64,000 bases of DNA from Candidatus Eiseniibacteriota bacterium (lineage in GTDB: Bacteria > Eisenbacteria > RBG-16-71-46). The stretch is from NCBI GenBank assembly GCA_016215625.1, contig JACRIW010000016.1, forward strand, positions 6,025 to 70,024, written 5' to 3'. Of the stretch, positions 3,044-24,728 are shown piece by piece. The position numbers and the translations under genes are program-made. The notes beneath the pieces are model-generated. The model did no database searches. It worked only from the letters and a program-made list of their open reading frames with translations, and was not told the DNA's origin. Position 1 is the stretch's first letter, and every line of letters starts with the position of its first letter.

Positions 3044-3988
3044 GTGACGATTTCGTACACCGAACCGCTGCAGCATTCCTATGCGCGCATGAAGGCGGTG
3101 CTGTTCCGCTCGCCGTTCCCGATCGAGTCGTGGTTCGTGATGGGGTTCGGGGCGTGGCTCGCGGACATTCTCTCCAGCAACAACGGCTCCGCCGGCTCGC
3201 AGTGGAAGACCACGAAGGGCGAGATGGCCGATGCGGCTTCGCGGGCGGGCGACTTCCTCGCGAACCCCACGATGGTCGCTCTGGTGCTCGCGGGGCTGCT
3301 CATGATCGGCATCCTGCTGCTCGTGCTCTCGTGGGTCTCGGCCCGGTCCAAGTTCGTGTTCCTCGAGAACGTCGTGCACGGGCGCGCCGCGTTCCTCGAC
3401 CCGTGGCGCCGCAACGGCCGGCTCGGCAACTCGCTCTTCCTCTGGAACGCCATGATCAGCTTCGCGTGGCTGCTGCCGATCGGCTTCGTGCTGGTGCCGA
3501 TGCGATACGCGATCGTCTCGTACCTGAGCGGCCACGGCTGGACACACGTCCTGATCGGCCCGCTCGCGCTCGGCATCGCGCTCGCGCTGGTGTGCGGGCT
3601 GGCGATCTTCGTCGTGTGCGCGCTGACCGAGGACTTCGTCGTGCCGCTCATGTGGCGCTACGACGAGGGCGCGTGGGCCGCGTGGGCGCGCTTCCGGCCG
3701 CTGCTGTTCGCGCACTTCGGTGATTTCGTCGCCTACCTGCTCTTCTCGGTCCTGATCGCGATCCTCGCCGGGATCGGGCTGCTGCTCGCCGGCCTGCTCA
3801 CGTGCTGCGTCGGGATCGTGCTGATGGTGATCCCCTACCTCGGCACCGTGGTCACGCTGCCCGTGCACTTCGTGTTCCGCGCCTTCGGCCCGATGTTCCT
3901 GCGCCAGTACGGGCCGGAGTGGGACGTGTGGGGGCCTCGCACGGCTCAAGACACGGACAGCCGCAGCACTCCCTCGGCGATCAGCTGA
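3044..3988 (+). CDS. Polytopic integral membrane protein, function unknown
   Basis: A GTG start has GGAGG 5 nt upstream. The sequence has multiple long hydrophobic segments (LVLAGLLMIGILLLVLSWV, ISFAWLLPIGFVLVP, ALGIALALVCGLAIFVVCAL, LFSVLIAILAGIGLLLAGLLTCCVGIVLMVIPYLGTVV). It converges on drmC, with about 43 bp of 3' overlap. Confidence 0.5.
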   Translation: MTISYTEPLQHSYARMKAVLFRSPFPIESWFVMGFGAWLADILSSNNGSAGSQWKTTKGEMADAASRAGDFLANPTMVALVLAGLLMIGILLLVLSWVSARSKFVFLENVVHGRAAFLDPWRRNGRLGNSLFLWNAMISFAWLLPIGFVLVPMRYAIVSYLSGHGWTHVLIGPLALGIALALVCGLAIFVVCALTEDFVVPLMWRYDEGAWAAWARFRPLLFAHFGDFVAYLLFSVLIAILAGIGLLLAGLLTCCVGIVLMVIPYLGTVVTLPVHFVFRAFGPMFLRQYGPEWDVWGPRTAQDTDSRSTPSAIS

Positions 3989-4737
3989 TCGAGATGTGCC
4001 CTCGCGGCCACCGGCGCACGGCCGCCAGTGAGCAGCACGCCCAGCTCCATGTTCGCGTCGAGCGCCGCCTCGGTGAGGTTGGCGCTCGACACGAAGAGCA
4101 CGCTCTCGTCCGCGAGCGCGAACTTCGCGTGCAATAGGCCGCGGCGCCCGCTGGCGTCGGCTGGTCGCCTGTCACGCGGCCACTCGTAGATCTCGATGCG
4201 ATCGGCCAGTGATCGGCCCAATGCGGCCGCTGCATCGCGGGACAGCCGCCCATCGCTCTGCGACTCGGTTTCACCGAAGAAGCGAACCGTGACACCTCGC
4301 GCGAGCGCCTCCCGCAACGCGGCCGCGACCGACTCGATCCGGTAGGCCGCGAACGTGACGATCGAAAGCCGATGCCGTGCAGCGTGCACGACCTGCAGAA
4401 GCGCTTCGTCGGAGCGCCTGAGGGCCTCACCTGAGCGCGGGCCGCTCCAAACGAGGTCCACACGCTCGTGCTCGTCACGCCACCGCGACGCGGCGGCCAT
4501 CGTGCGAAGAGATTCTGCCAGCATGCTCCCCGTCTCGGGGGCTCGCTGAGACCAGGTTGCGAGCAATCGGACCACGGCGTGCCGCACGTGAGGGTCCGCG
4601 AATCGGGCGCCGATGCGTTCGGGCTGAGCCTCTTGGCCCGAGGCGTCACCGCCCAGTTCGTCTGCAAGCCTATCGAGCGTCTCGGGCGTGACCTGACGCG
4701 CAAAGTCGACCACGGCGGCGCGCAGTTCCGGCGTCAT
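3946..4737 (-). CDS. drmC: DISARM DrmC, phospholipase D-family (HKD) nuclease-like protein
   Basis: The HKD motif region is GLLHAKFALADESVLFVSSANLTEAALDANMELGVL. The ATG overlaps the drmB stop in an ATGA configuration. It is the last gene of the helicase-DUF1998-PLD triad. Confidence 0.75.
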   Translation of the reverse strand: MTPELRAAVVDFARQVTPETLDRLADELGGDASGQEAQPERIGARFADPHVRHAVVRLLATWSQRAPETGSMLAESLRTMAAASRWRDEHERVDLVWSGPRSGEALRRSDEALLQVVHAARHRLSIVTFAAYRIESVAAALREALARGVTVRFFGETESQSDGRLSRDAAAALGRSLADRIEIYEWPRDRRPADASGRRGLLHAKFALADESVLFVSSANLTEAALDANMELGVLLTGGRAPVAARAHLDQLIAEGVLRLSVS

Positions 4738-24400: not shown

Positions 24401-24728
24401 CGTCGAGCCGGGCGCCGGGCTCGATCTCCCAGATCACCTCCAGCGTCTCACCGTGCGCGTCATCCTCGACCGAGGCGAGTGCCACCAGGTGTTGCGGCTC
24501 GAGCTGGGGCTGCAGCGGATCGGGCGCAAGCTCGCTGCGCCGCACGTCGGTCACGACATAGCGGCGTTCACGCACGCGAACGATCTGGCCGGTTTCAGGA
24601 GCCGAGGACATGGGGAGATATGGGAAATCCGCACGGGAAGGGATTGGGATTCCGGACGGCGCGGACTCTACCCTATCCGGCCGGAGCCGTAACGGATCGT
24701 GTCGGGAGAGAGCGCCGGAGCGGCTCAC
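21453..24728 (-). CDS. drmD: DISARM DrmD, SNF2-family helicase
   Basis: SNF2 motif I is [16 protein letters not shown], motif II is [11 protein letters not shown] and motif VI is [23 protein letters not shown]. The longest ORF starts with a GTG at 24728, only 16 bp from the upstream gene. An internal ATG at 24611 ([13 protein letters not shown]) would leave a 132-bp promoter region, so the start is uncertain. Confidence 0.8.
   Translation of the reverse strand: [1091 protein letters not shown]

Follow-up and report, generated by a model that had tools for sequence, protein, structure and literature searches.

Ofir and colleagues reportedly set out in 2018 that class 1 of DISARM, the restriction-modification-associated defence island system, comprises the genes drmD, drmMI, drmA, drmB and drmC, in that order. 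The same five genes occur on the minus strand of a 64,000-nucleotide stretch of DNA from Candidatus Eiseniibacteriota (positions 6,025 to 70,024 of contig JACRIW010000016.1, assembly GCA_016215625.1; hereafter the window), but here the pair drmD-drmMI is separated from the trio drmA-drmB-drmC by other genes. These encode a large Dsr1-like protein, an NHL-repeat propeller, and a helix-turn-helix (HTH) protein followed by a nucleotidyltransferase (NTase). The locus therefore raises the question of whether a DISARM set interrupted in this way is still one system, and what the genes lodged between its halves represent. In the first-pass annotation of this DNA they were taken to be either co-opted components or a nested second defence module. 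The analysis described here favours nesting over co-option: the locus is likely to be an intact class 1 DISARM whose drmMI-drmA junction serves as a cargo bay, the present cargo consisting of two autonomous nested modules and some passengers.

Nine same-strand open reading frames (ORFs) fill positions 3946-24728, at the coordinates first assigned to them, and the five outer ones were recognised as class 1 DISARM genes by every library used, namely NCBIfam with its curated cut-offs, PADLOC models and Pfam domains. DrmD scored 1268 bits with NF038317 (cut-off 610) and E = 0 with the PADLOC DrmD model, and contains the SNF2-rel_dom (PF00176) and Helicase_C domains with the motifs GLGKT and DEAH. 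DrmMI reached 1653 bits with its PADLOC model, matched Eco57I, MmeI_Mtase and MmeI_TRD in Pfam, and has an NPPF motif. DrmA scored 1346 bits with NF038325 (cut-off 950) and shows a Helicase_C domain and the motifs GGGKT and DELH; its TTG start lines up with the ATG of drmA in the closest relative (locus L001). For DrmB the values were 659 bits with NF038324 (cut-off 240) and 43 bits with Pfam MZB (the former DUF1998, PF09369), and for DrmC 209 bits with NF038319 (DrmC_I; cut-off 133), together with a PLDc_2 domain and an HxKxxxxD motif that reads HAKFALAD. The Pfam domains expected at first pass were thus all seen. Every DISARM ORF is intact and has kept its catalytic motifs. Stop and start codons overlap at drmD/drmMI, where the junction sequence ATGA agrees with the overlap first described, and also at drmA/drmB, drmB/drmC and NTase/drmA; drmB probably starts at the GTG at 6605, overlapping the drmA stop codon (GTGA). 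A 28-nucleotide direct repeat with 82% identity covers the first codons of drmB (6577-6604) and drmA (10074-10101), giving similar N-termini (DrmA MTTPPDPTPA, DrmB VTTTPNPTPA); it may be due to chance, or reflect a shared translation-initiation or N-terminal feature.

A reading of the methyltransferase as PglX of the bacteriophage exclusion (BREX) system, which had been raised as a competing assignment, did not hold. PglX models gave 39 bits against a cut-off of 500, the BrxA/B/C and PglZ families had no match among the window proteins scanned, and Brx-type matches were limited to the BrxHI and BrxHII helicase models on DrmD and DrmA, well under the DISARM scores. Judged by profile scores and motifs, the first-pass identification of a complete class 1 DISARM, on one strand and in canonical order, is confirmed, and the system is otherwise ordinary. 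Comparison with class 1 DISARM drew on the Serratia sp. SCBI system (bioRxiv 10.1101/2021.12.28.474362) and on the DrmAB structure (PMC9142583). The five hallmark proteins are alike in order, strand, intact motifs and equivalog-level scores, and the window differs in that additional genes, 7.2 kb in all, separate drmMI from drmA, that drmMII is lacking and that the host is Candidatus Eisenbacteria. The extra genes are as first described, except that the start of the NHL gene (Met 13256), the strand of a 51-residue ORF (plus) and the start of the HTH gene (ATG 12040) have been corrected.

The position of the insert was compared with other loci by means of a DrmA scan, with one genome per species, which returned 348 relatives; the best 80, which form one DrmA clade, were kept. 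The window proteins were mapped onto these 80 loci, intergenic distances were measured and ORFs were called crudely. In all 47 loci in which both halves are visible, from many phyla, the order drmD-drmMI...drmA-drmB-drmC is kept. Of these 47, 35 have drmMI and drmA parted by 1 kb or more, and 29 by 2 kb or more, with a maximum of 8.7 kb; in eight loci the distance is less than 300 nucleotides. Elsewhere, inserts of at least 1 kb were found in four of 28 loci at drmD-drmMI, in none of 76 at drmA-drmB and in two of 63 at drmB-drmC. A split is the usual state in this DrmA clade, and it is concentrated at drmMI-drmA, the junction that in the window holds the insert at 10103-17307 (drmMI stop to drmA start). 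The initial view that described systems are contiguous does not apply here. The cargo itself is diverse: when 142 gap ORFs were clustered together with the four window cargo proteins, 104 sequences were unrelated to any other among them. Some three in four gap ORFs share the DISARM strand, and their defence matches include Schlafen/AlbA_2 proteins (eight), UvrD/GajB-like helicases (five) and HTH proteins with a Peptidase_M78 domain (four), as well as AAA_15, HEPN_Apea, GmrSD, SIR2 and AbiE.

BrxU is an example of a defence gene embedded in BREX. In its available passages, the preprint of Payne et al. (2024; bioRxiv 10.1101/2024.01.29.577857) already reports genes embedded in DISARM and describes "guilt-by-embedding" defence genes in BREX, DISARM, type I restriction-modification and Hma systems, and about 70 ShdA homologues have been found inside DISARM-like operons (Macdonald et al. 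2023; PMC10270631). The split architecture, believed uncharacterised when the first-pass annotation was made, is therefore already recognised for methylation-based defence loci, and the DISARM set itself adds nothing new. As with the embedded defence genes of Payne et al., the extra genes are mostly co-oriented and nested in a multi-gene methylation-based system, and their content, in which defence domains abound, varies between loci. Unlike them, none of the four window cargo proteins matches a candidate (PDC/HEC) model of PADLOC v2.0. The available passages of that preprint do not specify the DISARM junction, and the preference for drmMI-drmA (35 of 47 loci, compared with 0-14% elsewhere in the set) is measured here. 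With cargo at this junction in about three quarters of the surveyed loci, and almost none at the others, "guilt-by-embedding" searches could be focused on it.

Synteny with the nearest loci upholds a split junction in most relatives but not a fixed insertion. The inserted genes differ between loci, and in another Eisenbacteria metagenome-assembled genome (MAG; L003) drmMI and drmA are contiguous, and the nucleotide identity on either side of where they meet is about 69%. In L001, whose DrmA is 85% identical to that of the window, different cargo accompanies a shared cassette. Nucleotide homology with L001 reaches 17312, four bases short of the drmMI stop codon (17310-17308), is absent over the Dsr1-like gene, a small ORF and the greater part of NHL, and returns for the last 208 nucleotides of NHL at 82% identity. 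It is then broken again by an extra Schlafen gene in L001, before resuming at 12187 through the HTH, NTase and drmABC genes. As read from this alignment, a mosaic whose breakpoints fall at gene ends or close to them is the expected trace of cassette exchange in a cargo bay. The L001 bay (1326-7888) contains a SIR2_2 protein, a pair of unknown proteins of 150 and 386 amino acids and an 836-residue propeller with a FlgD_ig tail, followed by the 208-nucleotide NHL remnant, the Schlafen/AlbA_2 protein and the shared HTH-NTase pair.

The HTH-NTase pair is the part of the cargo nearest to drmA. Homologues of the HTH protein, which lies in a 398-residue ORF, align from their residue 3, and the gene therefore most likely starts at ATG 12040. 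The AlphaFold2 (AF2) model of the resulting protein (predicted local distance difference test score, pLDDT, 90.9) has a PD-(D/E)xK-like N-terminal domain, an IclR/MarR-type winged HTH (wHTH) domain and an NTase-like C-terminal domain, for which Foldseek returned EndoMS/NucS, IclR/MarR wHTH proteins and TM1012/MenT1, respectively; its family numbers 1972 cluster representatives. The NTase gene overlaps the HTH gene by 17 nucleotides, and its own stop codon overlaps the drmA start. Its product matches Pfam NTP_transf_8 at the border of significance (26.5 bits against a cut-off of 26.3), has more than 1700 homologues and contains a G34...D55xD57 motif that does not vary across its family. In a Foldseek comparison, the model of the NTase (pLDDT 92.6) aligned over its full length with the M. 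tuberculosis toxin MenT3/TglT (Rv1045), with a template-modelling (TM) score of about 0.5, E = 4.6e-4 and a probability of 1.00. Sequence searches of the PDB with NTase and HTH-partner profiles gave nothing significant, and nothing relevant was found in the literature on PF12281, NTP_transf_8 or GSU2403.

In type IV toxin-antitoxin systems of the AbiE/MenAT kind, an AbiEi wHTH antitoxin is paired with an AbiEii/MenT nucleotidyltransferase of the DUF1814 family (PMC7450476, PMC11375011), and MenT toxins act by a block of translation, as they add nucleotides to the 3' ends of tRNA (PMC7450476, PMC11162799). The window pair resembles these systems in having two overlapping genes, with the wHTH gene first and an NTase of about 270 residues second, in the full-length fold alignment with MenT3/TglT and the invariant G...DxD motif, and in a partner whose modelled wHTH domain is followed by an NTase-like C-terminal domain. 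It differs in that the NTase belongs to PF12281, with no match to PF08843 (DUF1814) or to PADLOC AbiEii (one homologue matches both Pfam families), and in that the partner, of about 380 residues, has no AbiEi match in Pfam or PADLOC and carries the additional PD-(D/E)xK-like domain. By analogy, the pair is probably an AbiE/MenAT-like toxin-antitoxin or abortive-infection module, in which the modelled folds suggest a putative toxin (the NTase) and a putative antitoxin and autorepressor (its partner). In L004, a canonical AbiEi/AbiEii pair (6172-7864, minus strand; PADLOC AbiEi E = 2e-68) lies in the same gap, beside the cassette and on the opposite strand to it, indicating that the two NTase modules coexist and are distinct. 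The GSU2403-family NTase and its three-domain wHTH partner represent a large uncharacterised family which is directly testable.

The same overlapping pair was found in Acrocarpospora and in two metagenomic contexts, and none of these three outside contexts examined has DISARM nearby; the pair is for this reason an autonomous cassette. The HTH gene stands directly upstream of the NTase gene in every case, with or without DISARM. Autonomy bears on the strongest of the alternative explanations, in which this DISARM lineage would have co-opted the intervening genes, or the HTH-NTase pair at the least, as integral components, for example a regulator or checkpoint of drmABC expression or activity. 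Such a role would fit the overlap of the NTase stop with the drmA start, the inverted repeats upstream of the HTH gene, and the identical position of the pair, directly upstream of drmA, that the window, L001 and L004 share (three loci among the four closest, and the only ones with this placement); dedicated regulators are also known in other DISARM systems, such as the CapH-CapP fusion. Against this, the pair is absent from L003, where DrmA is 70% identical, and from the other loci with a visible junction, the cassette family is very large and occurs outside DISARM, and the NTase fold matches a toxin family and not a regulator. Co-option is accordingly thought unlikely, and the pair is better read as one of two nested modules in the cargo bay. 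The intergenic region 5' of the HTH gene is a candidate internal promoter and operator, judging from its short inverted repeats, and the pair may feed transcription into drmABC, given the NTase/drmA overlap. A simple promoter and terminator scan gave nothing above shuffled expectation.

The second module is the 1141-residue protein encoded next to drmMI. It matched the PADLOC model of Dsr1 (defence-associated sirtuin 1; PDLC04166) with E = 1.4e-31 over residues 369-902, and from about residue 215 to its end it is homologous to the non-SIR2 part of Dsr1. No SIR2 domain was matched in Pfam, PADLOC or NCBIfam, and a PDB sequence search with the protein returned nothing significant. A metagenome scan recovered 73 relatives with 24-31% identity, and all ten of those tested matched Dsr1 models, with E values down to 3e-57, over profile positions 500-1217. 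The N-terminal part, of about 215 residues, forms a helical AHxxRE...H domain into which a low-complexity stretch is inserted. Across the family, this domain of about 230 residues, with AHxxRE and a second invariant histidine, has a gene of its own, upstream and overlapping, in 24 loci and is fused N-terminally in 17. The window protein is of the fused form (hidden Markov model, HMM, E = 5.7e-17), and both the AHxxRE motif and the second histidine are kept. The sole Pfam contact of the domain is PF18165 (pP_pnuc_1, a predicted pPIWI-associating nuclease), in five of 30 members and always below threshold. In three loci a SIR2-like gene, matching ThsA at 6e-5, takes the place of the partner. At least ten Dsr1-like loci directly follow hsdM-hsdS, and in L094 the module comes after drmD-like and drmMI-like genes. 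The family spans L090-L162, with examples in L095 (7322-10874), L116 (4252-10289) and L094 (11-10868).

DSR2 combines an N-terminal SIR2 effector with a helical sensor (PMC11850899). The window protein and every relative tested share with Dsr1 about 700 C-terminal profile positions, and three relatives pair with a SIR2-like gene; they differ from Dsr1 in having, instead of SIR2, the helical AHxxRE...H N-terminus, separate or fused, with its weak likeness to PF18165. Its sequence relationships make the window protein a candidate for a single-protein defence gene that follows the DSR design of effector and helical sensor, since the effector partner is swapped on a conserved sensor and the family lodges repeatedly in methylation-based systems. 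A broader proposition is held more tentatively, at slightly short of an even chance: that an undescribed Dsr1-sensor family with a helical, nuclease-like AHxxRE...H effector (fused, separate, or exchanged for SIR2 in the three loci) prefers methylation-based systems, after hsdM-hsdS or drmMI, and that drmMI-drmA is a dedicated, strongly preferred cargo slot. If this is true, the slot could be mined systematically for new defences. The Dsr1-like family with its swapped, non-sirtuin effector, known from 73 metagenomic loci, is the most interesting lead from this locus.

Taken together, these observations suggest a junction between a modification half (drmD-drmMI) and a core half (drmA-drmB-drmC) that would act as a cargo bay, with unrelated, mostly defensive genes swapped in and out. 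By family membership, DrmMI would mark host DNA with N6-methyladenine, the DrmAB helicase complex and DrmD would act on unmodified incoming DNA, and DrmC would be an accessory phospholipase D (PLD)-family nuclease. The Dsr1-like protein would be a single-protein sensor-effector, its large helical C-terminal part presumably sensing infection and its N-terminal AHxxRE...H domain, weakly like predicted pPIWI-associated nucleases, replacing the SIR2 NADase as effector. The MenT3-like NTase toxin would block translation by modifying tRNA ends, and the wHTH partner would restrain it and probably autoregulate the cassette. The partner would probably also influence drmABC expression, because the NTase stop overlaps the drmA start.

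Several points weigh against this interpretation. DISARM activity, NTase toxicity and defence by the Dsr1-like protein are each assigned from homology and context. The tight link between the NTase stop and the drmA start, and the occurrence of the pair at that exact spot in the closest loci, would also fit a regulatory role in DISARM. The survey is limited to one DrmA clade (the best 80 of 348) and to crude ORF calls. The NTase fails the AbiEii models of Pfam and PADLOC, and its fold agrees with that of MenT3 to a moderate degree (TM about 0.5). For the N-terminal domain, the matches behind its assignment as a nuclease stay under the threshold (21 bits against a cut-off of 26.3). In addition, the effector domain of the window protein may be degenerate, or regulated differently, given its insert of about 65 residues, rich in proline, arginine, aspartate and alanine, which lies at residues 70-135 or so (16850-17050), between the two conserved motifs, and is absent in most relatives.

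Two further explanations concern the DISARM genes themselves. The first supposes that drmD-drmMI is a stand-alone, type IIG-like methylase/helicase module and drmABC a separate helicase-nuclease system that happens to be its neighbour. The 7.2 kb between the halves, the scores of DrmMI on type IIG REase_MTase models and the possible internal promoter region at 12041-12269 would all suit two separate units. Such an arrangement, which had also been raised at first pass, is very improbable: the same order recurs in 47 related loci, eight of them with the near-contiguous junction, the equivalog models are DISARM-specific, and the identities of the five proteins rise and fall together across loci, at 65/66/70/63/51% in L003, 67/65/67/61/52% in L004 and about 50% in most others. 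Because the gene order recurs and the five identities vary together, the membership of both halves in one system is supported. The second, that the insert is a disruptive mobile element or a MAG assembly artefact that inactivated the operon, can appeal to the metagenomic origin of the window, to one small ORF on the opposite strand and to cargo with the lowest guanine-plus-cytosine (GC) content of the region (0.63-0.65), but is the least credible of all, as integrase or transposase domains were not found in the scanned window proteins, nor tRNA genes in the window, nor meaningful direct or inverted repeats flanking the island or the insert, while all DISARM ORFs are intact and the same junction architecture, with gene-boundary breakpoints, recurs in assemblies that are independent (L001, L004 and over 30 more). 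An intact DISARM with a cargo bay at drmMI-drmA is thus the explanation retained, and the features of the locus are collected in Table 1.

Table 1. Features of the interrupted DISARM locus, in window positions (aa, amino acids)
Feature	Position	Strand	Description
drmD	21453..24728	-	SNF2-type helicase, 1091-aa ORF
drmMI	17308..21456	-	N6-adenine DNA methyltransferase, 1382 aa
Embedded cargo 1, Dsr1-like	13834..17259	-	1141 aa; PADLOC Dsr1, without SIR2
Small ORF	13299..13481 (second Met at 13326)	+	60 aa; the second Met would give 51 aa
NHL-repeat beta-propeller	12270..13256	-	328 aa; Pfam NHL E = 4e-43
Intergenic region 5' of HTH gene	12041..12269	-	Short inverted repeats at 12111-12137, 12151-12186 and 12053-12070
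Embedded cargo 2a, HTH partner	10904..12040	-	378 aa, three domains; AF2 model and Foldseek
Embedded cargo 2b, NTase	10099..10920	-	273 aa, GSU2403 family (PF12281)
drmA	6602..10102	-	DExH helicase, 1166 aa, TTG start
drmB	4734..6605 (ORF to 6695)	-	DUF1998/MZB protein; 6605 is the probable start
drmC	3946..4737	-	PLD-family nuclease, 263 aa

The remaining cargo, the NHL propeller and the small plus-strand ORF, are likely to be passengers. The NHL gene occupies an ORF of 515 residues, in which, upstream of Met 13256, the third-position GC of its frame does not clearly exceed that of the other two and the translated sequence has a non-coding look; most likely, the protein really starts at that methionine. 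Its N-terminus is then signal-peptide-like (MASRRLFELIMCAAVFLIAVTPLAASEA), and the protein is probably secreted. A partnership of the propeller with the Dsr1-like protein was considered and rejected, there being no NHL match in the 76 Dsr1-like loci searched. In the small ORF, third-position GC rises in its own frame, and its product has no match in Pfam or PADLOC.

The 20.8-kb block as a whole is a foreign island, acquired horizontally, because its third-position GC is 0.72-0.85 and that of the flanks 0.92-0.96. The flanks carry housekeeping genes for MoaA, MurB, a MarR protein, a macro-domain protein and a transglutaminase-like protein. At the drmC end, a minus-strand ORF at 2990-3949, seemingly coupled to drmC, was rejected as probably spurious; the real gene there is 3044-3988 on the plus strand, which encodes a DUF7544 protein and has a third-position GC of 0.95. 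drmC overlaps the 3' end of this convergent gene by 43 nucleotides (3946-3988). At the other end, a gene of 313 codons on the same strand as drmD (24744-25685, minus), whose product is weakly DUF4350-like, ends 15 nucleotides before the drmD start. It was rejected as a sixth DISARM component on its host-like third-position GC of 0.96 and the lack of a homologue in the 80 related loci; read-through transcription from it into drmD is possible. The ORFs scanned in the remainder of the window showed no additional defence genes. Outside the island, the window is rich in genes for secreted propellers and proteases, and the region 35703-59642 encodes, as secreted or outer-membrane products, an S8 subtilase and a further protein with FlgD_ig or Por_Secre_tail sorting domains, an S9 peptidase and a TonB-dependent receptor, together with metabolic genes. 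Two of the cargo proteins are identical to the NCBI entries HZA61_01790 and HZA61_01810 of a Candidatus Eisenbacteria MAG, the latter being the 1141-residue Dsr1-like protein.

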